Assembly: GCA_003446605.1 (NCBI GenBank)
Contig: DMDF01000072.1
Location: 1 to 55,028, forward strand
DNA length: 55,028 nucleotides
DNA from: Anaerolineaceae bacterium
Lineage (GTDB): Bacteria; Chloroflexota; Anaerolineae; Anaerolineales; Anaerolineaceae
Reading direction: 5' to 3'
Of the stretch, positions 630 through 48,430 are shown in pieces. A program made the position numbers and the translations under genes. Positions within the stretch are counted from its first letter, which is position 1. Each line of letters starts with the position of its first letter. The notes below the pieces were generated by a model, which was not told the origin of the DNA, made no database searches, and saw nothing but the letters and a program-made list of their open reading frames with translations.

Positions 630-1202
630 TTGTTAAAGGGAAACGAATCTCTGGTGAGAAACGAAGAAAACATTCAAGACGAAGATACCTTGGTGGAGAA
701 AGCCCGACATGACCCTGATGCCTTTGCTGCACTCTATCGGCATTATCTCACACCGCTCTATCGCTACTTGCTGCGCAGGTTAAACAACATTCACGATGCA
801 GAAGATCTCACATCCCAGGTTTTTATGGAGGCTCTCGATGGTTTGATTGCGCATCGTTATAAAAAAGGAGGGTGCTTTGCTGCCTGGCTCTTCACCATCG
901 CCCGACGCCGTTTGGTGGATTTCTATCGGCAACATCCCTCCGAACCACTTGAGGATCCGCCATCTCCAGAACCGGAGCTGCTGACTGCCATCGAAAAGGG
1001 CGAAGATGTACAGCGACTTGCTCATCTGTTGGCACAACTTGACGAGCAGCAGCAGGAATTATTACGATTGCGCTTCTCGGCGAGCTTGAGTTTTGCAGAA
1101 ATAGGAATACTGGAAGGGCGCAGCGAGGCTGCTGTCAAGATGGCTGTATATCGAACCCTCGATTTTCTTCGTGACCATTGGGCAGATGATGATGGTAACT
1201 GA
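630..1202 (+). CDS. ECF-type RNA polymerase sigma-70 family factor (copy 1)
   Basis: 190 aa. Region-2-like segment: DAEDLTSQVFMEAL...AAWLFTIARRRLVDFYRQ. Region-4 HTH: LSFAEIGILEGRSEAAVKMAVYRTL. A membrane anti-sigma-like gene follows directly. Confidence 0.85.
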   Translation: MLKGNESLVRNEENIQDEDTLVEKARHDPDAFAALYRHYLTPLYRYLLRRLNNIHDAEDLTSQVFMEALDGLIAHRYKKGGCFAAWLFTIARRRLVDFYRQHPSEPLEDPPSPEPELLTAIEKGEDVQRLAHLLAQLDEQQQELLRLRFSASLSFAEIGILEGRSEAAVKMAVYRTLDFLRDHWADDDGN

Positions 1203-7833: not shown

Positions 7834-10491
7834 ATGAATAATAATTTTCCTTCGAATATATGGATATCAAAATTTGAGGCTGCCTATCTTCTCGCAGATC
7901 CAGAGGAAGGGTTTGTTCTTGGGTTACGTCATTCCTTGCTTGAACATGCAGAAAAGTTGACTGCGAAATCTGTGGGTAATGGAAAACCTGTGCAGAAAGC
8001 ATTTGTTCATATTTTCCCGCGCAAGACTTGGGTTGTTATTGGATTGGCGTTGGTGGTTCTCGTCACGGCATTCATCTTCCACCAACCTGTTTTGGCGGCG
8101 CTAGGTCGCTTATTTGGGTTTGGCTATTTACCAGAAATTGGTTTTGTTCAATTGGATACAACGCGGGTCTTGCGTAATCCCGTCACTCAGGAGGCGGAAG
8201 GGAGCAGTCTGACAGTGTTGTATGGGTTGACCGATCCGGATCAAACCATCTTGTGGTTATCGTTTGATGACGAAGCCCAACCAGCCGATGGTGCCTGGTT
8301 GGAAACCCCAACAGGAGAGCGGTTTAACCTGCTGTATTGGAATTGGGAAACGACCCGCACCAACCCAGAGGGAGTGCGGCTGGAATTTCCAGCACTAGCT
8401 GCAGATATCAACCAAATCACTCTGGCGCTACCCCAAGGTTGGCGTATTCCACTGGAATGGATTCCGGCAGCTCAAGCCGGCATTCCTTCTGCTGAGATCA
8501 ACGCCCCGTACCCAACGACCCAAGCAAACGGCACATCCTCCTCTCCCATTGAGACTTCTCAACCTTGCATACAAGCCTCTGAACTGCAAGTTTGTTTGAA
8601 AGCCGCCCAAATGGACGAACAGGGTGCCCATGTACTTCTGGAAGCGGTCAGCCTAGGAAATCAGTTTACCCCCGGGAGTCTATTTTGGGGATTGGCTGAA
8701 ACCAATCCTTTCAATTATGATATAAAGCTCCAATTGAGTGATGATCTGGGAAATAGCGTTTTGTATTCTGAAAGTTCCTTTGAAGCTACTCAACCTGAAG
8801 GGGATCGTCTGCTGCAACCTCTAACATTTCCAGTGCTTTCAACCGATGCAAAGTATTGGACGTTGCGCGTTCCAGCCTTTAGGGCGACCACTGTTTTCGT
8901 TGAACCACTCGAATTGACCATCGATCTTGGCTCTGACCCCCAACCCGGGCAAGTGCTATCCATTAACCAGGAGCTGAATATCCTGGGGCAAACCATTCGT
9001 TTCACGCAAGCAACCCTGGAAGGCGATGGGGTGACCAGTTTGCGCGTCAAATTGCTCAGTGAACCGCAATCAGAAAACCAGGATTTGGTAATTGCTGGTC
9101 TCGATTTGAGTAAGCCAGAAGGAATCGATGACCGGTATGGCTCTGGCTTCAACTCACAGGGACAGGTGGTGGTATTTTCCGAGTTGATCGGTCCCATTTC
9201 TGGCAAAAAGACAGAACTGCTGACCTTCCCCATCCTGGGGGCGCAAATTATCCTGCCCGGTCCATTTGAATTTGTGGTTCCCGCTCCATCCTTGGCTGTA
9301 GATTCACCCGTAGAGACACCGGTTATTGTGGATGGGAGCAATTTTATTCCCCAACCTACGCCAACACCCATTACCTTGGATAGCTATCAATACAGCGGGC
9401 GGGCAATTCAAGCAGGAGATTTGCTCTTCACGGTTGTTGGAGAGGATGATACCAGCCTGTATGCGGCTCACCCTTCCTCTGATGATTTTGTACCTGAGTT
9501 AATTGCGACGCTGCCGGGACAGGTTTACCAGTTCTACATCCATCCGGATCGGCTGGGGTTGGATTACCTGGTTGGTGAAAAAGTATCCGAAGATGGATTC
9601 TCGTTTTATCGTTCACCGCAGCTATTTAGCCTGCGCTTTGCAGATTCACAGCCACAACAGCTGTTTGCTTTTCAACGGGGATCGGATCAGGTGAAAGGAA
9701 CAGAATTGCTTGCGACCTGGTCCAATGATGGAAGATTGATGGTTTTCTCATCTACTGGATTCTTTCCCAAACCAGGTGAGGCGCCCAATAAGATGGGTTG
9801 GTTCGACTTTACTTGCCGGGATACGGGCAATTGCCAGCCGGAATACCTTCAATTGCCCGCTGGTTTAGCTATTAATCCGTTTGAGTTTTCACTGGATGGC
9901 TATAAGTTGTTGATGCAAGGAAGATATATTAATGGGGTGGGATCTGGCGCAGGTGACATTTTCTTTATTAATTTCAACGCACAGTTACAGCCAGAAGCTA
10001 TTCAAAATCTTACAAATAGCGATCAAGTCGATGAAGAATCGCCGCAATGGCTGCCAGATGGTAGTGGATTTTTATCGGCATGTTCGGATGACCAAACCCC
10101 GAACAATGAATATAACCTCTGTCAGCATGGAGTGTCTATTAGGCAAAATGAAACACTCTTGCGTTTACCTTTTAACATGCACCAGTTTGAACTATCGCCT
10201 GACGGAAAAATGCTGGTGGATCTAATATTTGTGCCGGATGCTATCAAGTCTCAACGGAATTTGCGGTTATTCAATCTGGAAACTCGTCAGACAACCACCT
10301 TGATGCAAAACAGCGATTTGTACCTGGATGCTCAAAGCTTTTCGCCGGATAGCCAATATCTGGGCTTTGTGTGGGATGGGAGTAGAAAGTTGAGCGTGAT
10401 CCAGCTTGAGTCCGGAAAGGAATATAATTTAAGTGATAGTGTAAAAACGGGAGCCATTTCCTGGTTGAGTTGGGTACATATTGCACAATAA
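7834..10491 (+). CDS. Anti-sigma-factor-like single-pass membrane protein with C-terminal PD40/TolB-like beta-propeller
   Basis: The ATG lies 1 nt after the sigma stop. It has the TM helix WVVIGLALVVLVTAFIF and the same juxtamembrane G-x-x-P-E-I-G-F motif as 1171..3471. The C-terminus has PD40-like blades (WSNDGRLMVF, FSLDGYKLLM, WLPDGSGFLS, LSPDGKMLVD, FSPDSQYLGF). Confidence 0.65.
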   Translation: MNNNFPSNIWISKFEAAYLLADPEEGFVLGLRHSLLEHAEKLTAKSVGNGKPVQKAFVHIFPRKTWVVIGLALVVLVTAFIFHQPVLAALGRLFGFGYLPEIGFVQLDTTRVLRNPVTQEAEGSSLTVLYGLTDPDQTILWLSFDDEAQPADGAWLETPTGERFNLLYWNWETTRTNPEGVRLEFPALAADINQITLALPQGWRIPLEWIPAAQAGIPSAEINAPYPTTQANGTSSSPIETSQPCIQASELQVCLKAAQMDEQGAHVLLEAVSLGNQFTPGSLFWGLAETNPFNYDIKLQLSDDLGNSVLYSESSFEATQPEGDRLLQPLTFPVLSTDAKYWTLRVPAFRATTVFVEPLELTIDLGSDPQPGQVLSINQELNILGQTIRFTQATLEGDGVTSLRVKLLSEPQSENQDLVIAGLDLSKPEGIDDRYGSGFNSQGQVVVFSELIGPISGKKTELLTFPILGAQIILPGPFEFVVPAPSLAVDSPVETPVIVDGSNFIPQPTPTPITLDSYQYSGRAIQAGDLLFTVVGEDDTSLYAAHPSSDDFVPELIATLPGQVYQFYIHPDRLGLDYLVGEKVSEDGFSFYRSPQLFSLRFADSQPQQLFAFQRGSDQVKGTELLATWSNDGRLMVFSSTGFFPKPGEAPNKMGWFDFTCRDTGNCQPEYLQLPAGLAINPFEFSLDGYKLLMQGRYINGVGSGAGDIFFINFNAQLQPEAIQNLTNSDQVDEESPQWLPDGSGFLSACSDDQTPNNEYNLCQHGVSIRQNETLLRLPFNMHQFELSPDGKMLVDLIFVPDAIKSQRNLRLFNLETRQTTTLMQNSDLYLDAQSFSPDSQYLGFVWDGSRKLSVIQLESGKEYNLSDSVKTGAISWLSWVHIAQ

Positions 10492-10520
10492 TGGGGCTAG
10501 ACAAGAAAGAAGAGGTTTCT

Positions 10521-12869
10521 ATGAAGAACAAACTTTTCCACAGACCAATTCTGACGTTTGTGCTAATCATCTTATTAACTGGTTGTGCTACAGAGACGGC
10601 TGTTCCTGCCACGCCTGCTTATCCGACCAGTCTTTCCACAGCTACCCAACCAGTATCTAGTTCTACTGCAGAACCCGCGTCTGGATGGGAAAACGTAGAA
10701 ACGCAGCTATCCTCAGCGATTTTACGAACACCGGATGGAAAATGTGAGTGGGAGGTATGGGGCTGGCTGGAGCAAGAGGTATACGTCTGGGCATTTTGCC
10801 AGTCAGGAGCTATGCCGCATGCCAGCGCAGCAAGCGTCCCTGCTGTACTGCACCTTCGCGAGGATCAGTCGGTTGAGACTGTTGACTTACCCCAAGATGG
10901 TAATGCTTATGGAGTGAGTGTGAGACGTTTGTTTCCTCCGGCAGTGCAGGAAAAGATTTCCGCACATGCTTTTGATGTAGATGCCGCCCAAGCCCATCTT
11001 GCGCTGCGTTGGGAAGATCCATCCCTCACGCCAGCCATTTATATTGAAACCGGTGACCCACTGCCTCTGCCGGGCGAACCGGCAGTTCCTGCCATTTCAG
11101 CAGACTATGTGGATCGCCTTACAACGATTTCCACGCTGGGAGCGGGGAATGTCAATCGCTTGGTATTCCTGACAGACGACCGATTGGTAGCATACGGCGA
11201 GCGAGGGATTGAGTTTGTAAATATGACCATCATGCAAACCAGCCATCCATACCAGGAAATTCTTGTAGGCAGAGAAGGCGTGCTCTCTCCCGATGGTCAA
11301 CTCTTGGCGGTTTGGGAGGATGGCAAGCTGCAGATTTATACTCTTGAAAATGGCTCCCTATTACAGACCGTTGAGATTAATGAACAGGATGGACGTGTCA
11401 TATCAGCCAACTTTCTCTCCGATGGAGAGACCCTGGCAATAGAATTACGCCCCATCGGAGAAGAGGTATATTCACACCAGGTTATGTTCTATCGCATGAA
11501 TGATGGCATGCTTCTCAACCGTTGGGATATGCAGGGCATGAGTATGGTCTTTTCGCCGGATGAGCATAGCATGGTCAGTCAGGCAATGAGCGGGCTTAAG
11601 GTATGGTCTGTTCCGGAAGGCGAACTGCTGCATACCTTTCAGGCAGTCACCAGTTCAGCAACGTTTTCAGCGGATGGACAATTCTTGGCTGTTGCGGATA
11701 TGGGTGTGGTGCGAATTTTGTCGGTTGCGGATGGCAGCGAAATTGGGCATCTTCCGGAAGATATCGGGGCTGTCTCCGGGGTGGATCTTTCTCCGGATGG
11801 CAAGCTGTTGCTCACGTGGTCGAACGACTCGTCCCCGGCGCGCCTGTGGCGCGTATCCGACCTTTCTCTACTTCTCGAATTGCCCATTGAAGGTGTTTCC
11901 GCAGGAGTATTTCACCCCAATGGGACTGCTGTCGTACTGGCTGGAAATGGTGCCATAGGACTATATTCTATATCGACGGGCGAATTGATCGGAAGTGTCG
12001 ATGATCAGTTTCCAGCCATTGCAGGTCTATCATTTGCGCCAGATAAGACCCTGAGCGAGGGCGCTCGTTTAGCGGTGCTGTATGGAATAAACACCGATCA
12101 CTCCCTTTTGGTGAATTGGGGCATTCCCCAGGGCACGCGCCAGTTCATGAGTGATGCTTATTCAGCCATCAGTTTGGAATATACCAGCGACCCTTATGGG
12201 ATTGCTGTCGGCTCGTGGGATGGGACCGTGCAGATGGTTGATCCAGATGATGGGGCGCTGCTGCGCACATTCGAGGGACTGCCTGCTCAAGTGCAAGCCA
12301 TCCAGCAGGATGGTTGGGGGCAAATGGCAGCCAGTTCGATGAATGAAGCGCGCATTTTTGTGCTGCCGGATGTAAATGAAAGCAGTGGGCGGGAGGTTAG
12401 CATGTCTGGCGGGTGGGTAAGCGCTCTATCCTGGACCTGTTACCTCTTCGCTGCGCCTATGGATGGATCCGTGTGGGTGCTGGATGAGACAGGGGAAAAT
12501 GTTGTGCAGACCTTGACGACGATGGACGATGGGTATGAAAGTTACCTGGCTGTTCCAGCGGACTGCATGCAGATAGTAGCAGGCAAAAATCAATCCATCT
12601 ACCGCTGGCAGACAGTAGACTGGGAAGCATTGCCGACCTGGTCGATGCCGGCAACGATTACTGCACTGGCAGTTTCGCCAGATGGTTCGCTTGTGACGGT
12701 GGGCTTGGCAGACGGTCAAGTGCAGTTGCTGGAACGTGAAACTGGTACATTGCTGCGGGTATTAGAAGGGCATTCTGGCGAGATAACTGCACTCGATTTT
12801 TCTCCGTATGGTAATTTCTTGGCTTCGGGTGGGACGGATGGTGTGGTCACGGTGTGGGGGATGAAGTAA
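10521..12869 (+). CDS. WD40/beta-propeller repeat lipoprotein
   Basis: ATG 10521 is preceded by GAAGAGG. The signal peptide has a lipobox (ILLTGC). There are many propeller blades and a canonical terminal WD40 unit, LEGHSGEITALDFSPYGNFLASGGTDGVVTVWGM. The ORF-track start at 10470 overlaps the upstream gene and is less likely. Confidence 0.75.
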   Translation: MKNKLFHRPILTFVLIILLTGCATETAVPATPAYPTSLSTATQPVSSSTAEPASGWENVETQLSSAILRTPDGKCEWEVWGWLEQEVYVWAFCQSGAMPHASAASVPAVLHLREDQSVETVDLPQDGNAYGVSVRRLFPPAVQEKISAHAFDVDAAQAHLALRWEDPSLTPAIYIETGDPLPLPGEPAVPAISADYVDRLTTISTLGAGNVNRLVFLTDDRLVAYGERGIEFVNMTIMQTSHPYQEILVGREGVLSPDGQLLAVWEDGKLQIYTLENGSLLQTVEINEQDGRVISANFLSDGETLAIELRPIGEEVYSHQVMFYRMNDGMLLNRWDMQGMSMVFSPDEHSMVSQAMSGLKVWSVPEGELLHTFQAVTSSATFSADGQFLAVADMGVVRILSVADGSEIGHLPEDIGAVSGVDLSPDGKLLLTWSNDSSPARLWRVSDLSLLLELPIEGVSAGVFHPNGTAVVLAGNGAIGLYSISTGELIGSVDDQFPAIAGLSFAPDKTLSEGARLAVLYGINTDHSLLVNWGIPQGTRQFMSDAYSAISLEYTSDPYGIAVGSWDGTVQMVDPDDGALLRTFEGLPAQVQAIQQDGWGQMAASSMNEARIFVLPDVNESSGREVSMSGGWVSALSWTCYLFAAPMDGSVWVLDETGENVVQTLTTMDDGYESYLAVPADCMQIVAGKNQSIYRWQTVDWEALPTWSMPATITALAVSPDGSLVTVGLADGQVQLLERETGTLLRVLEGHSGEITALDFSPYGNFLASGGTDGVVTVWGMK

Positions 12870-13066: not shown

Positions 13067-15229
13067 TCAAAAAGCATACCTGACCAGTTTCATCATGTTT
13101 CCGTCATAATAGTAGGCAATCAAAGAACGATTCGTTTCATCAATGACCAGCCGAGGAAAACCGCGTTCCAAATTTATCTGGCGGATCAGTTCCATTGTCT
13201 GCCCATCATATATCTTGATAGAACCTGCAGTATAGTCTGCGCCTGCTTCGGCTGTATCTCTGACCGTTACTATATATTTACCGTTCTTAGAAACAGTAAC
13301 GTAATGGCTTTCTTCATCATCGGCTAGCTGAATCTCCTGTTTTTCCAATGTATCTAGATTTATCTTAAATATTTTCCCTGAGCTCGGATACCATGGACCT
13401 TTGAACTCCTCATGGAAAAAGACTGCATGATCAGTGGTTTGAATGTCCTCACCGATTGCGTCCCATTTCGTATAATCAATCACCTTGTTGTTATGGTTAT
13501 CCAGATCTATGATCCCGAAACCAGATCCGGAACTTTCAGTGGCGGTAAAAGCTAGGTATTCATCATTTCCGGCAAACTCTAGTGAATCGATATACCCAAA
13601 AGTCGCTAGTCCGCTCTTCGAAAAATCAAAAACGACCTGTTGCTCCTTCGTCTGCAGATCATAAAGCAAAACTTGATTGGTTACAATATTGGCACAAGCA
13701 ACTTTTTCTCCACTTTTTGATAATGCGCAAATATGCGGGTCAAGCACATGATATGGTATATCAAATATCTGTCCCACATCAACCGTATTGATTAAATTAA
13801 GGCTTGCATCATATCTATCCAATATGAGAGGACAGTCCATAGCATGTTCCGTCATACATTTCAGGTCTTGTTCAAATAAACCCACAATGTTTTCAGCAAA
13901 GTCAACTTTCTGAGCAAGATAAGGATCAGTAGAGATTTCCGTTTTATAAAGCAGCGTTTCTGAATTCAAATCAAACAGCGCAGCAGAATCAAACCATATC
14001 AGGAGATTATGATCATCCGTTAGATGAATTCCTGGCGTGCTGTATTGGGAGAATAGGTCATTCTCAATCAGCAAATTCGTCAAATCCTTATCTGCAGCCG
14101 GCGCAATAGCTGTAGCCGCGTTATTGTTCGACAAATCTGAGTTTGCAGTTAGTGCAATCACTGCAGCCTCGTCGTTGACTAACAAGACAGACTTTGTTTT
14201 ATGACCATAGATTTCACTGTCTTTATAACTTTCTCCGACAGGAATAATCATGGCATAAATTGTATTCAGCCGATCGTAGTCATGGATGTCTAAAGTGAAC
14301 TTATACTTTGACATTTTGTCATTGTGAATTCCCATCAGAAAACTCTGCTGTCCTGCAATGCTGACCGGTTCATGATTCACAAAAATGGTAACACGGTAAT
14401 CGGTCTCAGTACCGCCGTAACCGCTCAATTCCAGATCAATTTTTCCGTTTTCCGCAAATAAATTAACATTTGACCAATTAAATTCACCAGTGTATAAATT
14501 AAAATCAGCTTGACGGACTCTTCCCGATGCGTCCAGGTCTTTATTTTGACTAATTTCTTTCGCTGATTGAGGAATAGGTTCCGTCTCAATGGCGGGAGCA
14601 TAATTTTCCGTATACTGAGGCGCATCGGTTTCCATGATTACGGTCAGCGGTATATAAAATGATGCATCTTGATAGATGCCGAAACCCTTGTCTTCTGTTT
14701 CTGGAACAAAAGAGGGTTCCCACAGAAAAACTCCGAACAGACCAAGATCATCTCCAGCTGAGCCGGTTACCGGAGTGAATGACACAGTAAACTCAATCCT
14801 GCCATCACTGCTGACACGGTGTTTGCTTAATAACACTTCCTGATCAGCGTCTATTCTGCCATCTTGCTGACTGCTTTCTATAACTTGATGCGGCTGTGGA
14901 ACCCCATCCAGAAAAAGCATCAGACCAACTTCAGTATCAGATCCGGTTCCTTCGAGATAGTAAGAGAGCTGGATAGGTTCGCCGTCATACGTTAGGGTAT
15001 CATCCTCAAGGGGATCAAAATCAATAGGACCTATACCATACCCTCCAATCCTCTGTCCCTCGCTCGACTGCTCCCCGCCGGAATCCGTTTGCTCAGATGG
15101 ATTCATTGTAGGAAGAGTCAGTATCTGTTCCGTTGCGGTGGGTGAGGATGAACAAGCCGCCAGCGTCAAGATTAAGATAGCGATGCTGCACAATTTCATT
15201 TTTATCTGATAGTTCATTTTTTCCTCCAA
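13067..15229 (-). CDS. Secreted lipoprotein with internally repeated Ig-like modules and beta-propeller-like C-terminus (function unknown)
   Basis: Signal peptide and lipobox: ILILTLAAC. Two similar modules: IQLSYYLEGTGSDTEVGLMLFLDGVPQP and IDLELSGYGGTETDYRVTIFVNHEPVSI. The C-terminal part is blade-like (VSKNGKYIVTV...). Confidence 0.5.
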   Translation of the reverse strand: MEEKMNYQIKMKLCSIAILILTLAACSSSPTATEQILTLPTMNPSEQTDSGGEQSSEGQRIGGYGIGPIDFDPLEDDTLTYDGEPIQLSYYLEGTGSDTEVGLMLFLDGVPQPHQVIESSQQDGRIDADQEVLLSKHRVSSDGRIEFTVSFTPVTGSAGDDLGLFGVFLWEPSFVPETEDKGFGIYQDASFYIPLTVIMETDAPQYTENYAPAIETEPIPQSAKEISQNKDLDASGRVRQADFNLYTGEFNWSNVNLFAENGKIDLELSGYGGTETDYRVTIFVNHEPVSIAGQQSFLMGIHNDKMSKYKFTLDIHDYDRLNTIYAMIIPVGESYKDSEIYGHKTKSVLLVNDEAAVIALTANSDLSNNNAATAIAPAADKDLTNLLIENDLFSQYSTPGIHLTDDHNLLIWFDSAALFDLNSETLLYKTEISTDPYLAQKVDFAENIVGLFEQDLKCMTEHAMDCPLILDRYDASLNLINTVDVGQIFDIPYHVLDPHICALSKSGEKVACANIVTNQVLLYDLQTKEQQVVFDFSKSGLATFGYIDSLEFAGNDEYLAFTATESSGSGFGIIDLDNHNNKVIDYTKWDAIGEDIQTTDHAVFFHEEFKGPWYPSSGKIFKINLDTLEKQEIQLADDEESHYVTVSKNGKYIVTVRDTAEAGADYTAGSIKIYDGQTMELIRQINLERGFPRLVIDETNRSLIAYYYDGNMMKLVRYAF

Positions 15230-18092: not shown

Positions 18093-18166
18093 CGGGAGCG
18101 ACGGGATTCGAACCCGCGGTCTCGGCCTTGACAGGGCCGCATGTTAAGCCACTACACCACGCCCCC
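18093..18166 (-). tRNA. tRNA-Asp (anticodon GTC)
   Basis: The reverse complement folds by hand. Acceptor stem: GGGGGCG/CGCTCCC. Anticodon stem: CGGCC/GGCCG, with loop CTGTCAA. T-arm: GGGTTCGAATCCC. The discriminator is G and CCA is not encoded. Confidence 0.85.
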
Positions 18167-41017: not shown

Positions 41018-41019
41018 CA

Positions 41020-41068
41020 GCAAAGAAAAGGGAGATGTTGCCATCTCCCTTTTCTTTGCTTTCTTTAT
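41020..41068 (+). terminator. Strong rho-independent terminator
   Basis: The stem is gcaaagaaaagggagatg / catctcccttttctttgc, a perfect 18 bp, with loop ttgc. The T-rich tract tttctttat follows. Confidence 0.85.
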
Positions 41069-41110: not shown

Positions 41111-41503
41111 ATGATAAAACACAGTAAACCAGTCCTGATCCTTTCATTATTATTCCTGTTTACTTTTTTGCTGGGCTGTTCTACGAAATCCGATCCTGCA
41201 CAATCTGTGTTGGAATATCTAAATTCATTAGTTAACCAGGATGCTGACAGAGCAGTAGCAGTATCTTGCGCCGATTGGGAGAAGCAAGCTCTCCTAGAAA
41301 CAGATTCATTTCTTTCTGTTGAGGCATTATTGAACAACGTAACCTGTAAAACGGTTATGGAAGGGGACACGGAAGCAGAAGTAACTTGTAATGGAACAAT
41401 CGATATGACTTATAACGAAGAAGTACGGTCTATTGATCTGAGTCTGCGTACTTATTCATTGATCTACCAAAGTGGTGAATGGTTGGTATGCGGTTATAAA
41501 TAA
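41111..41503 (+). CDS. Small Cys-rich lipoprotein, first gene of the Dlt-like operon
   Basis: AAGGAG lies before the ATG. Lipobox: FLLGCS. 130 aa. It ends only 8 nt before the next ORF. A candidate promoter is TTATCG(41065)-17 nt-TACAAT(41088). Confidence 0.55.
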   Translation: MIKHSKPVLILSLLFLFTFLLGCSTKSDPAQSVLEYLNSLVNQDADRAVAVSCADWEKQALLETDSFLSVEALLNNVTCKTVMEGDTEAEVTCNGTIDMTYNEEVRSIDLSLRTYSLIYQSGEWLVCGYK

Positions 41504-41511
41504 CCTGATAG

Positions 41512-41634
41512 ATGAAAATGAAAAAAACAGGACAATCTGAGAACATTTTGGTTTTAATCTTAGTTTTTATCATTATCGCTGTTTTGATTTTTAGCGTCGA
41601 TACATCACCACTTTGGATCTATCAGGGTTTCTAA
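41512..41634 (+). CDS. Unannotated 40-aa single-pass membrane peptide, DltX-like (C-terminal W-I-Y-Q-G-F)
   Basis: Hand translation: MKMKKTGQSENILVLILVFIIIAVLIFSVDTSPLWIYQGF. The stop TAA at 41632-41634 abuts the MBOAT ATG at 41635. It is too short for the supplied ORF track. Confidence 0.6.
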   Translation: MKMKKTGQSENILVLILVFIIIAVLIFSVDTSPLWIYQGF

Positions 41635-43050
41635 ATGAGTATTACGCAAATAGCATTCGCGAGTTTGGGAAGTATTCTATATAGAATATTTGGAAAGAAC
41701 TGGCAGCGAGAGCGAATAATCTTTACGGTAAACATATTCTTCTTGTTCTTGCTCCAACCTACCGGTTCACTCCGATATCTCAATTTCATTCTTCCATGGT
41801 TAATGATCTTTTTACTTTTAGGAACTGGCATGGCACTTACGAAGGGGAGTAAGAAAGAATTTTGGTGGATTTCTGTGCTCTGCCTTATTGGATTCTCTCC
41901 CTTTTTGCTTGCAGAAATAATACCCTCGCTTAAATCTAGCTTTTTAGATATCCACCTCAATACTCAAATACTTGTAATTATCCTGGGGGGTGGTGCACTT
42001 TACATTTTATGTTCTTATTTACTGAGATCAAAAAAACGATTTTTGAATTTCATTATTGTTTTAGTGCTGCTGATCTTTATTCTTCTAAAACAACCCAATC
42101 TAACGACCGTGATGAGCCGTATACTGCGCGGTCTTTTTCAACAAAACACCCAATTAGCATCACCGCTGGATATTCGTTGGATTGGCTATTCCTATATTTC
42201 ATTTCGCCTGATTCATGTCATTCGCGAGTTTCAAAAAGGTCGTATTACAGACATTTCTTTGATCCGGTTTATGAATTTTTGTTTGTTTTTTCCTGCGATG
42301 ACAGCAGGTCCAATTAACCGATATGACGATTTCTCAAAGCAAATGGATGCACCGGAACAATCGATGCAGGATGGGATATTGGAAGGTGGTAAAAGACTTT
42401 TTGTGGGGTTACTTAAAAAGTTTGTCGTTGCAGATAGCCTTGCCAAGATAGCGCTGAATACAACCAATGCTGCACAAATAACAACAGCCGGTTGGATGTG
42501 GGTGGCACTTATCTTTTACTCGTTACTACTTTATTTTGATTTCAGCGGCTATACCGATATAGCAATTGGAATGGGTTTATTTCTGGGTATCAGACTTCCC
42601 GAGAATTTCAATAAACCATACCTGAAGAGCAATTTAACCAAATTTTGGGATAGCTGGCATATTACCTTATCTCAATGGATCCGTGCTTATTATTTCAATC
42701 CCATCAATCGTTCATTACGAAAGACCAAATTATCCCAATCGCCATCCACTATTCTTTTCATTTTACAGGTTACAACCATGCTGCTCATCGGACTTTGGCA
42801 TGGGATCACTTGGACTTTTGCGATATGGGGATTATGGCATGGCATTGGATTATTTATCCAAAATCGATGGAGTGCATGGAGAACCCATTCTAATAGAGCC
42901 AAAAAACAAGCTGGACCAGCTCATACGTTTTTAAATATAATATCTACCGGATTGACTTTCACGTATGTTTCTTTAGGATGGGTATGGTTTATTAGCCCAA
43001 CCATTCAGGATGCTTTGGGAATTTTTCAAAAATTATTGGGGTTAGGGTAA
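41635..43050 (+). CDS. MBOAT-family membrane O-acyltransferase (DltB/AlgI-like)
   Basis: 471 aa and polytopic. Motifs: FWDSWHITLSQWIRAYYFNPI and the conserved His in LLIGLWHGITW / GLWHGIG. Confidence 0.85.
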   Translation: MSITQIAFASLGSILYRIFGKNWQRERIIFTVNIFFLFLLQPTGSLRYLNFILPWLMIFLLLGTGMALTKGSKKEFWWISVLCLIGFSPFLLAEIIPSLKSSFLDIHLNTQILVIILGGGALYILCSYLLRSKKRFLNFIIVLVLLIFILLKQPNLTTVMSRILRGLFQQNTQLASPLDIRWIGYSYISFRLIHVIREFQKGRITDISLIRFMNFCLFFPAMTAGPINRYDDFSKQMDAPEQSMQDGILEGGKRLFVGLLKKFVVADSLAKIALNTTNAAQITTAGWMWVALIFYSLLLYFDFSGYTDIAIGMGLFLGIRLPENFNKPYLKSNLTKFWDSWHITLSQWIRAYYFNPINRSLRKTKLSQSPSTILFILQVTTMLLIGLWHGITWTFAIWGLWHGIGLFIQNRWSAWRTHSNRAKKQAGPAHTFLNIISTGLTFTYVSLGWVWFISPTIQDALGIFQKLLGLG

Positions 43051-43057
43051 TTTTTTT

Positions 43058-44176
43058 ATGAATCAAAAAGGAATCAGTCCTGTTCGCATCTTTCTCAAAG
43101 CAATAGTGATCTTGTTATGTTTTAATTTTGCATTTCCCATTATTGATCATGTTCCTTCAGACAGAATATCCTTATACAATAATCTGGTAGTTGGGAGAGA
43201 GCGCTTACCCTTTGGTGAAAATCCTGACTTGGCATACAACTTGACGATGAATGATATGGATGCAATGCTGGCATCGCATGAAATTTCCAAAGCGCAAAAG
43301 GATGAATCTTTTTCGATCCTAATAACCGGTGATTCATCAGTATGGGGGACGTTACTTAATAACGAGGAAACTATTTCAACAAGGCTCGAGCAAAGAATCC
43401 ATTCCGATGAAACGTTGGATATTTATGGTAGAACGAGCGTTTACAATCTTGGGTATCCGACCACATCTATTCTAAAAGATCTTGTCATTCTGGATGAGTG
43501 CCTTAAATTTCAACCTGATACAATCATTTGGTTTATTACTCTCAATTCTGTTATCAAAGATGCCCATCAAGATGCTCCCATTATTTTGAATAATCCTGAA
43601 AAAACGAACGCGGTTATAGAGAAATATGACTTGCGTGTTCCACTTCTAGCGGAAAAGACTTATATGGAAAAAACTTTTTTGCAACAACGACGAGATATCC
43701 ATGATCGTATTCAATTGCAGCTCATGGCTGTAATGTGGGCAGCTACAAATATTGACCAATACATACCGCAAGACTATAAATCTGCCGCTCGAGATCTTGA
43801 GGCTGATGATTCTTATATGAATATCACGAATTATGAACTTACCGAGCAGGACATTGAACTAGAAGCAATTACAGCATTCATTGACCAGAATCCATCCATC
43901 AATGTAATTGTGGTAAACGAGCCAATTCTGATCAGTACTGGGATGAATAGCGAAGTTCGCTATAACTTTTATTATCCTCGATGGGTTTACGATAAATACA
44001 GATCACTGGTTGCAGCAAAATTTCAAGAAATGGGGATAAAATATATCGATTTATGGGATTCCATACCTGAAAAATTATTTACAAACAGCGCAATCCATTA
44101 TAATGCTCAGGGCGTGGATATTCTTATTGAACATCTATATCCTGAAATTGAGAAGGAAGTATTGTTGAAACAATGA
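43058..44176 (+). CDS. Membrane-anchored GDS(L)/SGNH-like protein (DltD/AlgJ-like partner of the MBOAT)
   Basis: N-terminal anchor: VRIFLKAIVILLCFNFAFPII. Block-I-like motif: ILITGDSSVWG (Ser93). Its size and topology resemble DltD. Confidence 0.55.
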   Translation: MNQKGISPVRIFLKAIVILLCFNFAFPIIDHVPSDRISLYNNLVVGRERLPFGENPDLAYNLTMNDMDAMLASHEISKAQKDESFSILITGDSSVWGTLLNNEETISTRLEQRIHSDETLDIYGRTSVYNLGYPTTSILKDLVILDECLKFQPDTIIWFITLNSVIKDAHQDAPIILNNPEKTNAVIEKYDLRVPLLAEKTYMEKTFLQQRRDIHDRIQLQLMAVMWAATNIDQYIPQDYKSAARDLEADDSYMNITNYELTEQDIELEAITAFIDQNPSINVIVVNEPILISTGMNSEVRYNFYYPRWVYDKYRSLVAAKFQEMGIKYIDLWDSIPEKLFTNSAIHYNAQGVDILIEHLYPEIEKEVLLKQ

Positions 44177-45123
44177 AATACACCAAACTTATATTAATTC
44201 TACTCAATGCTTTGATCATCACCAGTTGTACCCAACCTCAACCGACCGTACAAACAGTACATACAGATGTAGAAGATGCTACTGTTCTGATTGAAGAGAA
44301 TAGCACACTTACACAAATGACAATAGAAATAACTGAAGTGGTGACGGAAACAACATCACCAACAGAAACACCCGCATTTACACCTACACCAGATACACGC
44401 ATGTTGCCTGAGGATTGGAAGAAATGGTCTGTCAATCCTCAGATTTCTGGAACCGTTATGGATATTTTTCTTCACGGTCAAGAACTGGGTAGAAATCCCA
44501 ATGCTTTTTCAAAAATTGGAGATTGCCAAAATGTGAAGGAAGCATTTTTAGGTTTTTTTGATCGACAGGTTGTTTACCTCGCTGAAAATCAACAGCATTT
44601 ACAAGAAACCATTGACAATTTCAGTGGGTATTTCAATCGTGATGGCTTTGCTGTAAAAGGAGGCTTAAACGCACCTTCAAGTCTTAATCCACTGATGGCA
44701 GATCCTGTAGCATGCCAACCTGATGAAAACCCCTTGATGTGTGAAGTGAGAAATAACAATCCTGCCTATGCATTTGTCAGCTTTGAATTATGGTATGAAG
44801 GTCGATCGGCAGAAAACTACGAAACCTATCTCAGGCAAGTTCTGGACTATCTGATATCACAGGGAATCGTACCGATTTTACTAACGAAAGCGGATAATAC
44901 CGAAGGCGATGATTCGATTAACTACACTATTGCCAAATTAGCCTATGAATATGATATTCCCATGGTGAATTGGTGGTATACAGCCCATACCTTGCCCAAC
45001 AATGGTATGGACCCTGAGAGAAACGATGACTTTCATATATCATCCACAGCATGGACGGAAAGAAGCTACGATGCCTTAGAAACGCTAGACGCTGTTTGGC
45101 GAACCGTAAGGGATCTTCAATAA
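44173..45123 (+). CDS. Lipoprotein with SGNH-like block pattern but Cys in place of the nucleophile Ser (GDC ... DDFH)
   Basis: It overlaps the upstream gene by 4 nt. Lipobox: IITSC. It has a Thr/Pro/Glu linker. Motifs: KIGDCQN (residues 116-118), KADN (about residue 242), NDDFHIS (residues 285-288). Confidence 0.45.
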   Translation: MKYTKLILILLNALIITSCTQPQPTVQTVHTDVEDATVLIEENSTLTQMTIEITEVVTETTSPTETPAFTPTPDTRMLPEDWKKWSVNPQISGTVMDIFLHGQELGRNPNAFSKIGDCQNVKEAFLGFFDRQVVYLAENQQHLQETIDNFSGYFNRDGFAVKGGLNAPSSLNPLMADPVACQPDENPLMCEVRNNNPAYAFVSFELWYEGRSAENYETYLRQVLDYLISQGIVPILLTKADNTEGDDSINYTIAKLAYEYDIPMVNWWYTAHTLPNNGMDPERNDDFHISSTAWTERSYDALETLDAVWRTVRDLQ

Positions 45124-45140
45124 AGAAAAAGGATATAAAG

Positions 45141-45389
45141 ATGGACAAGAAAACAATCATCGAAAAATTGGAAAAAAGGATTGTGTCAGATATTCTCAAA
45201 GAACCAGGTCGGACTATTGCCTTTGATGAAGCTTTAATTAGCAGTGGATTAATCGATTCTTTTTCAATGGTTGATATAGCATTGATTGTTGAAGATCTCT
45301 TCGATGTTCAAATTGATGATGCGGAACTTTCTGCCGATACTTTCGATACGCTGGACCAATTAGCGGATCTCATACAGCAACGGTTATAA
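45141..45389 (+). CDS. Acyl/peptidyl carrier protein (DltC-like)
   Basis: 82 aa. The phosphopantetheine site is SGLIDSFSMVDIALIVEDLF (Ser40) and the C-terminus is acidic. ATG 45141 is preceded by aaaaaggatataaag. The ORF-track start at 45051 overlaps the previous gene. Confidence 0.8.
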   Translation: MDKKTIIEKLEKRIVSDILKEPGRTIAFDEALISSGLIDSFSMVDIALIVEDLFDVQIDDAELSADTFDTLDQLADLIQQRL

Positions 45390-45392
45390 ACG

Positions 45393-47087
45393 ATGAGGAA
45401 TTTCACAACAGTATTGCTTGACCATTATAAAGAAGATGCGGAATTCCCGGTAATAATTTTTCAAAGTGCCGGAAAGCCTGATATTCCAATTACCTATAAA
45501 GAACTGGTTGAAAAATCCTATTGCTACGCAGAAAAATATTTCAACGATGGTATTCGACCTGGTGATGTCATTGTGCTGGTCTTACAGCATAGCCTGGACC
45601 TCATCTACTCCTATTTTGGAGCTATTTTAGCTGGGGCAGTACCTTCCATGATGCCTTTTTTAACCGAAAAGCTCATCCCTGAAAAATACCAAAATGACTT
45701 TCAATCCCTTTTAACGATCATTCATCCAAAAGCTATCGTCACCTACCGTGAATTTAAAAACGAGGTTTTTGACCATTTTGATACAGCCTCGCAAGTAAAG
45801 CACATAATCCTTAGCGATGATATTGTTTTCGTGAAAAAGAAAATACCTGCAGAAATACCAGGAATATTCTGTGATGATGAAAGTGTTGCATTGTTGCAAC
45901 ACTCTTCAGGAACCACTGGTTTGCAGAAAGGGGTAGCTCTTTCACATAGAGCTGTTTTTAATCAATTGGATGGTTACATCAAAGCGATAAAGCTTGATCC
46001 AGATAAAGATGTGATTGTAAGCTGGCTACCTTTGTATCACGATATGGGATTAATAGCCTGTTTTCTCATGCCAGTTTTATACAGGACACAGGTTGTAATG
46101 ATGTCACCTTTTGAATGGGTGAGGGCTCCTTACCGTTTGTTGACAGCTATCAGCGACTATAAGGGCACTATTTGCTGGTTACCCAACTTTGCGTTTAATT
46201 TTTGTGCCAAGAAAGTACGCGATAGTCAATTAGAAGATGTGAACCTCTCTTCGATGAGAGCGCTGATTAATTGTTCAGAACCAATGCGCGATTCAAGTCA
46301 TCAGGTATTTGCAGAACGTTATGTACATTATGGATTTAATGTAGATGCTTTTGCAACAAGTTATGGAATGGCAGAGAACGTTTTCTCGGCAACCCAAGGT
46401 GGCATTGATTCTCCCATAGTAAAAGATATCATCAATCGCGATATTTTTCAAACAGAAAAAAAGGCTGTCCCCGCTACACTGGATGAACCCTCGATCGAGA
46501 TGCTTTCAACTGGAAAAGCGGTGGGAAGTGTACAAATTGCGATCCTTGATGAGAAAGATAACACTCTTAGTGATCGAGAAATTGGTGAAGTAATTATTAA
46601 AAGTAATTGTTTGTTTAATGGGTATTACAATCGACCTGACTTGACTGAAAAATGTTTTATAAATGGGTGGTTTCGTACCGGTGATTATGGTTATATGGCT
46701 GATGGAGAGTTATACATCACAGGACGGAAAAAAGATCTTATCATTGTGGGTGGCAAGAATATTTACCCACAAGATTTGGAAGCGCTAGCAATGGACGTAC
46801 CTGGAGTTCATCCCGGGCGTGCAGTAGCATTTGGTATTTTCGATGAAGATAGTGGAACGGAGGAAGTCGTGCTTATCGCAGAAGTTGATGTCGATTCTGA
46901 GGAAGAGAAAAGCACTATCAGTCGAGCAATAAAAGAAAAGGTTACTCGAAATTCAGCTATTTCCTTACGACATGTCATGCTTGTTGATGAAAAATGGTTG
47001 ATCAAGACCAGTAGTGGGAAAATGGCTCGCGCTGCGAATAAAGAAAGATATATTCGTCTAACGACGAATTCCAAAACATCAATTTGA
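45393..47087 (+). CDS. AMP-forming adenylating enzyme, fatty-acyl-AMP ligase / acyl-CoA-synthetase type
   Basis: Core motifs: LLQHSSGTTGLQKGVALSH, YGMAE, WFRTGDYGYM, GRKKDLIIVGGKNIYPQDLE, SSGKMAR. It starts 4 nt after the carrier-protein gene. Confidence 0.85.
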   Translation: MRNFTTVLLDHYKEDAEFPVIIFQSAGKPDIPITYKELVEKSYCYAEKYFNDGIRPGDVIVLVLQHSLDLIYSYFGAILAGAVPSMMPFLTEKLIPEKYQNDFQSLLTIIHPKAIVTYREFKNEVFDHFDTASQVKHIILSDDIVFVKKKIPAEIPGIFCDDESVALLQHSSGTTGLQKGVALSHRAVFNQLDGYIKAIKLDPDKDVIVSWLPLYHDMGLIACFLMPVLYRTQVVMMSPFEWVRAPYRLLTAISDYKGTICWLPNFAFNFCAKKVRDSQLEDVNLSSMRALINCSEPMRDSSHQVFAERYVHYGFNVDAFATSYGMAENVFSATQGGIDSPIVKDIINRDIFQTEKKAVPATLDEPSIEMLSTGKAVGSVQIAILDEKDNTLSDREIGEVIIKSNCLFNGYYNRPDLTEKCFINGWFRTGDYGYMADGELYITGRKKDLIIVGGKNIYPQDLEALAMDVPGVHPGRAVAFGIFDEDSGTEEVVLIAEVDVDSEEEKSTISRAIKEKVTRNSAISLRHVMLVDEKWLIKTSSGKMARAANKERYIRLTTNSKTSI

Positions 47088-47114
47088 TCAAATGGTTTTT
47101 TATTCAGAAAATCG

Positions 47115-47144
47115 TTGTATTTGATATTCTATTTTATGTAGAAT
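47115..47144 (+). promoter_or_regulatory. Candidate sigma-70 promoter (TTGTAT-18 nt-TAGAAT)
   Basis: Read directly. It lies 27 nt upstream of ATG 47171. Confidence 0.45.
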
Positions 47145-47170
47145 AATAATATTCAATCAGAAAGCATATC

Positions 47171-48430
47171 ATGCCAAATCATCCATTTAATCTACAAGAG
47201 CGGTGGAAAAAACAGCGATCGGGGAAGCAAATAATTCAACGTTATGCTTTTTATGCACTTGCCATACTGTTATTATTTGCGCTCAACTTGATTATCGCGA
47301 GAAATGTCACCGGTGGGGTAGATTTCTATGTCAAGTGGGGAAGTGCCAGGATCATGCATGATGGGGAGATGAGCGTTTACAGTAACGCAGCAAGAGATCT
47401 ACTCGTGGAAAATGCCAAAAACACCATATATTTCTCCCTATCAGATACCACGCAATTTACGACGCCCATTTATACTCTTTTTCTTTATTTCCCCTTCGCT
47501 TGGATAAATGATTTTGAATTAGCACGTGCCCTATGGATGACAATATGCTGTATCTTACTGGTTGTTGGGATACAACCGCAAGAAAAGGCAGTTTTCCAAC
47601 TCCAGACAAAAAACAATGCAACATATTTTCTGATCGCATTCCTTATCACAAATATATTTTCTGCTATTTCAATTATTTCCGGAGATACGTTAATAATTGC
47701 TTTAACCCTTGTCTTGATATCACTCAAGCATGCTCGAAAGGGAAATTATGAGCTGGCGGGAATTTTCTGCGGTCTGGCAACCATTCAACCGGTGCTGGCA
47801 ATTGTATGGGTCATTTTATTGGGGATTGTTAGCATTCGAGAAGGGAATTGGGGAGTGGTGGTTTGGTTTATCATTTCATCAGTTCTGCTTGTCTTTTCAG
47901 GTTTTATTCTTCAAGCGGGTTGGACTGTGGAATATTTGCAGACAATCATACTTGCGATACGGAAAATTCCGGAAATTTTACAGTTCAATTCTCGTAATAT
48001 AAACCAGATTCTACGGTTAACGATCCCGCTCATAATTCTCATTGTAGAGTGGGTTCGAACGGTATCGCGGGTGGATCGCCCGCAAACAAATATCTGGTTG
48101 TTTAATCTCAGCCTAATTCTATTTGCTATAGGGGTGGCTCCCCTAAAACCTGAAGCTTTTGTTTTGACAATACCAGCCTGGGTCGAGATTTTTGATGAAT
48201 GGAATAAACGACAAAACAACAGCGCTAAAGTGATTGGATATATCAACCTAAGCGTTTATATATTATTCACTATTTTATTTATATTTGTAAAACCAGCCAC
48301 AATAGTGAACCAGCAAGCGATTTCAGATACGTTGCTTTCACTATCTTCAGTGCATGTGTTGTTCAATATGTACTGGATACGAGGATGGCTAAAACAGGAA
48401 GATTTGAAGAATTACATAGAACCAGCGTGA
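47171..48430 (+). CDS. Polytopic membrane protein, GT-C fold / GT87 (DUF2029)-like glycosyltransferase candidate
   Basis: It has about 11 predicted TM helices. The first loop motif is GGVDFYVKWGSARIMHDGEMSVY, which resembles the D-x-x-Y...G..(L/V)Y motif of DUF2029 proteins. Confidence 0.45.
   Translation: MPNHPFNLQERWKKQRSGKQIIQRYAFYALAILLLFALNLIIARNVTGGVDFYVKWGSARIMHDGEMSVYSNAARDLLVENAKNTIYFSLSDTTQFTTPIYTLFLYFPFAWINDFELARALWMTICCILLVVGIQPQEKAVFQLQTKNNATYFLIAFLITNIFSAISIISGDTLIIALTLVLISLKHARKGNYELAGIFCGLATIQPVLAIVWVILLGIVSIREGNWGVVVWFIISSVLLVFSGFILQAGWTVEYLQTIILAIRKIPEILQFNSRNINQILRLTIPLIILIVEWVRTVSRVDRPQTNIWLFNLSLILFAIGVAPLKPEAFVLTIPAWVEIFDEWNKRQNNSAKVIGYINLSVYILFTILFIFVKPATIVNQQAISDTLLSLSSVHVLFNMYWIRGWLKQEDLKNYIEPA

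Follow-up and report, generated by a model that had tools for sequence, protein, structure and literature searches.

A putative MBOAT-SGNH acyl relay with a FAAL-type ligase and an acyl carrier protein in Anaerolineae

Two types of acyl donor have been recognised for bacterial MBOAT-SGNH pathways, namely acyl-CoA, used with an acyl shuttle that is fused to the MBOAT, and D-alanyl-DltC, used with the separate microprotein DltX, an arrangement deemed to occur only in Dlt (PMC12148441). In the latter, the invariant tyrosine of the DltX acyl-shuttle motif FxYxxF receives D-alanine from DltC via DltB and hands it to a serine of DltD, while in PatA the equivalent fused motif takes its acetyl group from acetyl-CoA in an auto-acetylation and then gives it to PatB (PMC12148441). 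The non-Dlt MBOAT/SGNH pathways have neither a carrier protein nor a DltX-like microprotein (PMC12148441, 2025). Here, we describe a seven-gene operon at positions 41111-47087 (+) of a 55,028-nucleotide (nt) stretch of DNA from an Anaerolineaceae bacterium (contig DMDF01000072.1; the whole stretch is referred to as the window). Going by the organism names of the homologues, the window is chromosomal DNA of a member of the Anaerolineae (Chloroflexota). The operon encodes, in this order, lipoprotein A, a membrane microprotein, an MBOAT, a membrane-anchored SGNH protein (SGNH1), lipoprotein B, an acyl carrier protein (ACP) and an adenylating enzyme of the fatty acyl-AMP ligase (FAAL) type. By analogy with Dlt and PatAB, we propose that this locus is a carrier-protein-dependent MBOAT-SGNH transmembrane acyl relay, a reading to which we assign a probability of roughly 0.7.

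Components of the locus

The ligase (45393-47087 (+), 564 amino acids (aa)) matched Pfam AMP-binding at 1.2e-46, and the NCBIfam models that it matched best were those of FAAL families (358 bits, NF006624), compared with 119 bits for the amino-acid adenylation domain. Its top matches, NF006624, NF009124 and FadD32, all stayed under their cut-offs of 600-975, and no DltA model was present among the best 25. The best solved structures were also FAALs (7r7f at 1.9e-70, 3kxw and 3pbk), which aligned end to end with values from 1.9e-70 to 1.2e-66. The core catalytic motifs were invariant and intact, and region 330-375 was aligned without gaps to FAAL 7r7f, which is no more than suggestive of the FAAL-specific insertion that blocks CoA ligation. 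These comparisons suggest that the enzyme is of the FAAL class and not of the DltA type, and it is proposed to activate the acyl cargo and to load the ACP. The ACP (45141-45389 (+), 82 aa) matched Pfam PP-binding at 1.4e-6 and had weak NCBIfam matches to ACP and DltC models, none of which reached its cut-off; for the DltC models the scores were 26.9 (cut-off 68) and 19.9 (cut-off 52.35), outside DltC membership. D39-S40 was conserved, with Ser40 (LIDS) as the phosphopantetheine site. The mechanical open reading frame (ORF) of the ACP starts at 45051, while its orthologues were called at 82 aa. In 37 of 38 loci the ACP gene ended 5-119 nt before that of the FAAL.

The MBOAT (41635-43050 (+), 471 aa) matched Pfam MBOAT at 3.1e-25, and its sole NCBIfam match was the DltB equivalog TIGR04091 (230 bits, below the cut-off of 375). 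Among solved structures it matched DltB only (8jem at 6.8e-44 and 6bug at 1e-43). W341-H342 and W388-H389-G390 were invariant in 27 MBOATs, and His389, in the WHG motif, and His342 are proposed to be catalytic. The protein ends in ...GIFQKLLGLG, and the consensus of the 27 homologues had no Tyr motif at the C-terminus. The window MBOAT scored 159 bits (31% identity) against the DltB core and a median of 126 bits against the FAAL-associated MBOATs with a fused shuttle that are described below, and thus at least as well on the DltB core as on its fused-type relatives. Homologues carry the automatic labels 'DltB', from the pipelines of the Joint Genome Institute (JGI), and 'AlgI'. Judged by sequence, the protein is a DltB-like MBOAT without a fused C-terminal shuttle. 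The public gene call for the window MBOAT (P0001) has a later start and comprises 415 aa, or 88% of the ORF; the longer form of 471 aa is supported because the homologues have 471-475 aa and because the stop/start junction with the peptide gene is conserved.

The microprotein (41512-41634 (+), 40 aa), whose stop codon directly abuts the ATG of the MBOAT gene, has a basic N-terminus, one transmembrane (TM) helix and a short C-terminal tail, WIYQGF, which is placed outside the cell by the positive-inside rule. This hexapeptide fits the DltX motif, with W for the first F. A small ORF with a Tyr hexapeptide was found just 5' of the MBOAT gene, usually abutting it, in 82 of 83 loci (WIYQGF in 78, WIYLGF in two, WIYQNF in one and WIYQGY in one), and the single locus without it had just 150 nt of sequence upstream of the MBOAT gene. 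When the peptide was used in a phmmer search of 1.84 billion representatives, 20 small proteins of 38-88 aa with 49-68% identity were obtained, all of which aligned via their C-termini. By analogy with DltX, Tyr37 is proposed to be the acyl-shuttle residue. Its gene is missing from both sets of gene calls that were inspected (L001 and L002).

The AlphaFold2 (AF2) model of SGNH1 (43058-44176 (+), 372 aa; pLDDT 87.4, pTM 0.89) showed an N-terminal TM helix (residues 8-29) followed by an SGNH fold. With this model, Foldseek retrieved SGNH esterases, and DltD (3bma) was among the few full-length matches (E 2e-4, TM-score ~0.4). Lipase_GDSL_2 was matched by 39 of 42 family members, and G91, D92 and S93 (the GDS motif, with Ser93), N130/G132, N287 and H347 were invariant in the 42 homologues. 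SGNH1 thus has the block I nucleophile (GDS93), the block III Asn (N287) and the block V His (H347) of SGNH hydrolases. These features assign SGNH1 to the GDSL superfamily, and its sequence does not make it a member of the DltD family; it may take the acyl group from the Tyr shuttle, in the role of DltD, PatB or AlgJ.

Lipoprotein B (44173-45123 (+), 316 aa) was also modelled by AF2 with an SGNH fold (pLDDT 81). The model retrieved TesA and other SGNH esterases in Foldseek, and the sequence profile gave marginal matches to TesA among solved-structure sequences (E ~0.04). G116-D117-C118, which forms block I, and D285..H288 were invariant in 41 homologues, in which a KADN block (KADN242) was also present. 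Cys occupied the nucleophile position in 70 of 72 family members, which have two further invariant Cys residues. Lipoprotein B is thus modelled as an SGNH fold with Cys in place of the nucleophilic Ser. It could be a second-stage transferase like AlgX or a de-acylase like Ape1 or DltE, and Cys118 would favour the transfer role, because a thioester would be formed on a nucleophilic Cys, like those of sortases and L,D-transpeptidases. Up to four paralogues were clustered in one locus (L014, L022, L041, L052, L064 and others), and the His of block V was replaced by Tyr in 11 of the 72 members. Lipoprotein A (41111-41503 (+), 130 aa) has a lipobox (LLGC) and invariant C53, C79, C93 and C127. Weak NTF2-like matches were obtained (DUF4440 in 11 of 25 members and SnoaL_3 in five of 25), and its profile had no match among solved-structure sequences. 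It appears to be an NTF2-like conserved accessory.

The earlier note on this DNA, which was made from its letters, had claimed a complete Dlt-type pathway that differs from dlt in gene order, in the loader, in having two SGNH proteins and in an extra lipoprotein, and every element of this claim held. The motifs that it had named (WHG His, GDS, GDC...DDFH and IDS Ser40) were all present and conserved among homologues. Its MBOAT of DltB-type logic has no solved-structure relatives other than DltB, its counterpart of DltX carries a DltX-type Tyr hexapeptide that is nearly invariant over 82 loci, its carrier protein has a PP-binding domain, and the loader that it had taken to be of another type than that of dlt most resembles FAALs among both NCBIfam models and solved structures. 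For both of its SGNH-like exoproteins the fold was recovered by AF2 models and Foldseek. The remaining two descriptions could be refined, the extra lipoprotein to an NTF2-like protein of the conserved core (45 of 47 loci, see below) and the GDC lipoprotein to a Cys-nucleophile SGNH protein that is frequently present in several copies.

Conservation of the module and layout of the operon

A forward scan with one genome per species gave 80 loci, of which 79 were labelled Chloroflexota, nearly all of them Anaerolineae, including the cultured Leptolinea tardivitalis. The remaining locus (L065) was labelled as a metagenome-assembled genome of Roseobacter sp., yet it has an Anaerolineae-type cluster with a WIYQGF peptide and is probably mis-binned. 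Components were counted in the 47 species-level loci that had at least 6 kb upstream and at least 8 kb downstream. Lipoprotein A, almost always directly 5' of the microprotein, and SGNH1 were each found in 45 of these loci, lipoprotein B in 39, and ACP or FAAL within 10 kb in 31. All five components were present in 26 of the 47 and the gene order of the window in 24, and the arrangement of ACP and FAAL relative to the core varied among loci. In an unbiased clustering of all neighbouring ORFs, the recurring families were the MBOAT (79 loci), SGNH1 (72), lipoprotein A (66), lipoprotein B (55) and FAAL (40), while the next family was found in 11; only these families recur, and the module therefore consists of exactly the genes that the earlier note had listed. 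The same clustering revealed no gene for glycan synthesis or export that travels with the Anaerolineae module, and no recurrent partner from polyketide synthase (PKS), non-ribosomal peptide synthetase (NRPS) or lipid-synthesis pathways near it. The expectation that the genes would be co-conserved in related genomes was therefore borne out across Anaerolineae. As for the question of whether the seven-gene arrangement itself recurs, the core was found in most loci, whereas ACP/FAAL was absent nearby in about a third of the species. In L. tardivitalis YMTK-2 (L068:11580-15622), the operon is interrupted after the MBOAT gene, where genes for a Bro-N domain protein and for Type ISP restriction-modification occupy the expected place of SGNH1. 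In another cultured species, Pelolinea submarina, the cluster is intact.

The linkage was also examined from the side of the ligase, in a reverse scan of FAAL homologues in metagenomes (80 loci). FAALs with at least 45% identity were in clusters of the Anaerolineae type, and an MBOAT was present in 18 of the 25 FAAL loci that had at least 3.5 kb on both sides. For FAALs at 35-41% identity with the same flanks, an MBOAT, mostly directly adjacent, was found in 12 of 16 loci and an ACP in 10 of 16. These MBOATs are 27-34% identical to that of the window, and 25 of the 27 complete cases have ~480-520 aa and carry a fused C-terminal FxYxxF motif (such as FMYRRF, FIYFQF, FVYALF and LMYGNF). SGNH/AlgX-like proteins follow in several of the fused-type loci, and several are in polysaccharide-export contexts, with a Wzy_C-like protein among the neighbours; for instance, the module of L122 (4311-9117) has a Wzm/Wzt-type exporter and, likewise next to it, a NodU-like carbamoyltransferase. 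The only organism assigned among the fused-type loci, by an exact-sequence match, was Chloroflexi bacterium RBG_19FT_COMBO_62_14 (L112). Since distant FAALs also adjoin MBOATs, in this case with the shuttle fused, the FAAL-ACP-MBOAT linkage is deep and independent of the shuttle architecture, and there is a wider, apparently uncharacterised FAAL-ACP-MBOAT-SGNH class (L112-L162). The earlier note had considered that the carrier protein and the ligase might come from an unrelated pathway; the neighbourhood test, run forward as well as in reverse, ties both to MBOATs. When a fused-type FAAL was searched against a plasmid collection, only stand-alone or NRPS-type FAALs were found, with no MBOAT nearby. 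For instance, a FAAL homologue on a 212-kb plasmid of Leptolinea sp. HRD-7 (L163; AP024711.1, 148815-150497), which is 40% identical to the FAAL of L122, stands alone among sugar-transport genes, and no MBOAT or ACP is annotated in its vicinity.

In the window, the seven ORFs are tightly packed behind a strong terminator, and their coordinates and spacing, from a 4-nt overlap to 17 nt, were reproduced as the earlier note had given them, with gaps in gene order of 8, 0, 7, -4, 17 and 3 nt. None of them is a chance ORF, since the homologues of each number in the hundreds to thousands and many species keep the set in synteny. The terminator upstream, an intrinsic terminator of a GNAT gene (41019-41068 (+)), proved to be real; it consists of a 19-bp stem at 41019-41060 with eight G-C pairs and a 4-nt loop, followed by a T-run, and sets the 5' limit of the operon. 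The ATG at 41111 is preceded, at a distance of 7 nt, by an AAGGAG ribosome-binding site. The 3' boundary fared less well. The earlier note had placed it at a promoter-like gap (47088-47170), but no terminator-like site was found there and promoter-like matches across the region were at chance level (31 found, 31.3 expected), so that the 3' end of the operon is less well defined. Because the FAAL gene is not followed by a terminator, the next gene (47171-48430), encoding a multi-TM protein whose orthologue in L001 has Pfam GT87 (PF09594), could be co-transcribed with the operon. Both this GT87-like gene and the upstream GNAT gene were considered as parts of the system and rejected, since they are syntenic in close relatives only, and neither recurred in the unbiased clustering. 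No Rfam element was found in or before the operon, and the sole Rfam match in the window was a single tRNA gene (18093-18166 (-)). Elsewhere in the window, three large ORFs (1171-3471, 3517-5637 and 13067-15229 (-); 766, 706 and 720 aa) were without a Pfam match at E up to 1e-5 and adjoin WD40/PD40 beta-propeller proteins at 7834-12869.

The proposed relay and its alternatives

The identities of the parts, their folds, their motifs and their co-conservation are shown here, and the following relay can be built on them. The FAAL would adenylate a free carboxylic acid and attach it in thioester linkage to the phosphopantetheine arm at Ser40 of the ACP. Given a FAAL-type loader, a fatty or otherwise hydrophobic acid, and not D-alanine, is the most likely cargo. 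On the cytoplasmic side, the MBOAT (His389/His342) would accept the acyl group carried by the ACP and pass it via its tunnel to Tyr37 of the microprotein, and the resulting acyl-Tyr ester would be handed to Ser93 of the membrane-anchored SGNH1. From SGNH1 the acyl group could reach an extracytoplasmic acceptor, either directly or via Cys118 of lipoprotein B; alternatively, lipoprotein B may act as a de-acylase. The NTF2-like lipoprotein A would be an accessory, possibly one that handles the hydrophobic cargo or the acceptor. We assume that the acceptor is an envelope polymer.

Several points weigh against this reading. The chemistry of each step, like the cargo and the acceptor, is carried over from Dlt and PatAB, and enzymes of the FAAL class can load non-fatty acids too. 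The phmmer search with the microprotein reached its own family alone and no Firmicute DltX, and its link to DltX is drawn from motif, size, topology and gene position. With regard to SGNH1, faint matches to Pfam DltD (PF04914) were found in just three of the 42 members (best 0.038), its profile yielded no DltD and nothing meaningful among solved-structure sequences, the TM-scores with DltD were just ~0.4, and at the canonical DxxH position it has no Asp (T-N-S-A-I-H; H-3). Furthermore, ACP/FAAL was not found within 10 kb in 16 of the 47 loci, and it is possible that these loci use another acyl donor or that the genes have been relocated in the genome.

It might be argued from these 16 loci that the core carries out O-acetylation with acyl-CoA as the donor, as AlgIJFX or PatAB do, and that ACP and FAAL are unrelated neighbours in the service of another pathway. 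The 'AlgI' annotation of homologues would be in line with this, as would the presence of two SGNH-like proteins and an accessory, which resemble AlgJ, AlgX and AlgF as they are generally known. However, ACP and FAAL co-localise with the core in two-thirds of the species and do so in varying arrangements, distant FAAL homologues again adjoin an ACP and an MBOAT, and no PKS/NRPS or lipid-synthesis partner that could use a FAAL-ACP pair recurs in the neighbourhood. In addition, the shuttle of all characterised acetyl-CoA systems is fused to the MBOAT (PMC12148441), while it is a separate microprotein here, as it is in Dlt with its carrier protein. We therefore consider this explanation improbable, and an acetyl-CoA-type AlgI/PatA assignment, which the earlier note had set against its own proposal, probably does not describe the locus. 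Even more improbable is a true Dlt orthologue that D-alanylates a teichoic-acid-like polymer and whose DltA has merely diverged. The only structural and NCBIfam relatives of the MBOAT are DltB, the locus, like Dlt, has a carrier protein and a microprotein that is encoded separately, and the JGI pipelines call homologues 'DltB'. Yet the ligase scores higher in bits on FAAL families than on amino-acid adenylation (358 against 119), has no DltA in its best 25 matches and finds FAALs as its best solved structures; the family thresholds of DltB, DltC and DltD were all missed, and two extra components, the NTF2-like and the Cys-SGNH lipoproteins, are conserved.

A less improbable, though still unlikely, variant is that the relay operates as proposed on an acceptor that is not a polymer, such as a membrane glycolipid, the anchor of a lipoglycan, or exported (lipo)proteins that would be modified at their N-termini or side chains. 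This would be consistent with the lack of a conserved glycan-synthesis or export gene beside the Anaerolineae module, with the hydrophobic cargo suggested by a FAAL-type loader, for which an NTF2-like lipoprotein is a plausible binder, and with the multiplied Cys-SGNH paralogues, which suggest several acceptors. In contrast, the related fused-type loci are found in polysaccharide contexts (Wzm/Wzt, Wzy_C-like and NodU-like), and every bacterial MBOAT-SGNH system that has been characterised acts on a polymer (PMC12148441). A carrier-protein-dependent relay to an extracytoplasmic acceptor is the reading that we prefer.

Comparison with known systems

Anaerolineae, which are filamentous, abound in sludge, sediments and soils, and to our knowledge next to nothing has been described of their wall polymers. 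The relay would give a first handle on the chemistry of their envelope, and if the cargo is fatty or hydrophobic, bacteria would own a dedicated route for lipidating envelope components outside the cytoplasm. More tentatively, and at somewhat less than even odds, this may be the first recognised carrier-protein-dependent bacterial MBOAT pathway for a cargo other than D-alanine, one that fatty-acylates, and so lipidates, molecules at the outer face of the membrane via a relay from ACP over MBOAT and acyl-Tyr microprotein to Ser/Cys SGNH proteins and represents one branch of a much wider class of split- and fused-shuttle FAAL-ACP-MBOAT-SGNH systems which has gone unnoticed in environmental bacteria. 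If true, it would be a prokaryotic counterpart of the lipid-transferring MBOATs of eukaryotes (Porcupine, HHAT and GOAT). The family of Cys-nucleophile SGNH lipoproteins is an enzymological curiosity too. No description of a FAAL-ACP-MBOAT system was found in the literature searched, although absence from that literature is no proof of absence, and the names under which databases list the components are either generic or apt to mislead ('hypothetical protein', 'MBOAT family', 'AlgI' and 'DltB').

Among the known systems, PatA/PatB/Ape1 of peptidoglycan and AlgI/AlgJ/AlgF/AlgX of alginate share with this locus an MBOAT that acts together with at least one extracytoplasmic SGNH protein and with an acyl-Tyr shuttle, and they also have more than one SGNH-like protein (AlgJ and AlgX, PatB and Ape1) and a small accessory (AlgF). 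Those systems use acyl-CoA without a carrier or ligase and have the shuttle fused to the MBOAT at its C-terminal end (PMC12148441), whereas here the shuttle is a separate gene, the MBOAT does not bear a hexapeptide on two extra TM helices, and the core is accompanied by an ACP and a ligase. The locus thus lacks the features that define the acetyl-CoA MBOAT-SGNH systems, namely a fused shuttle and the absence of a carrier. The window ligase itself is closest to the FAALs of stand-alone FAAL-ACP pairs (3kxw and 3pbk, the Legionella and E. coli FAALs, and the FAAL domain of an olefin synthase, 7r7e-g), and its gene is likewise located directly after that of a small ACP; those pairs feed cytoplasmic PKS/NRPS or lipid assembly, while here the partner is an MBOAT and no PKS/NRPS is nearby. 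The fused-type metagenomic modules have a FAAL of the same subfamily (35-45% identity), an adjacent ACP, an MBOAT and SGNH/AlgX-like proteins. They differ in that the motif is fused to the MBOAT and a separate microprotein is missing, and no homologue of the NTF2-like or Cys-SGNH lipoprotein was detected in them.

The closest likeness is to DltXABCD of Firmicutes. In both, an adenylating enzyme loads a small carrier protein, the MBOAT is of the DltB type and has no fused shuttle (that of the window is 31% identical to the DltB core and keeps the two conserved histidines), a separate single-pass microprotein ends in an aromatic-x-Tyr-x-x-Phe hexapeptide, and an extracytoplasmic SGNH protein is anchored by its N-terminus. 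The differences are that the loader here is FAAL-type and not DltA, that the ACP, SGNH1 and the MBOAT miss the family thresholds of DltC, DltD and DltB, that the hexapeptide is WIYQGF and not FxYxxF, that an NTF2-like lipoprotein and a Cys-SGNH lipoprotein, the latter often multiplied, are present in addition, and that the gene order and the host phylum, Chloroflexota, are others. As far as can be judged from the sequences, the system would therefore work like Dlt and yet not be a member of it, since the locus falls outside DltA, DltC, DltD and the DltB equivalog. Together with its relatives, it would represent a third, widespread configuration beside the two donor types, one where the MBOAT is supplied by an ACP together with a FAAL-type ligase.

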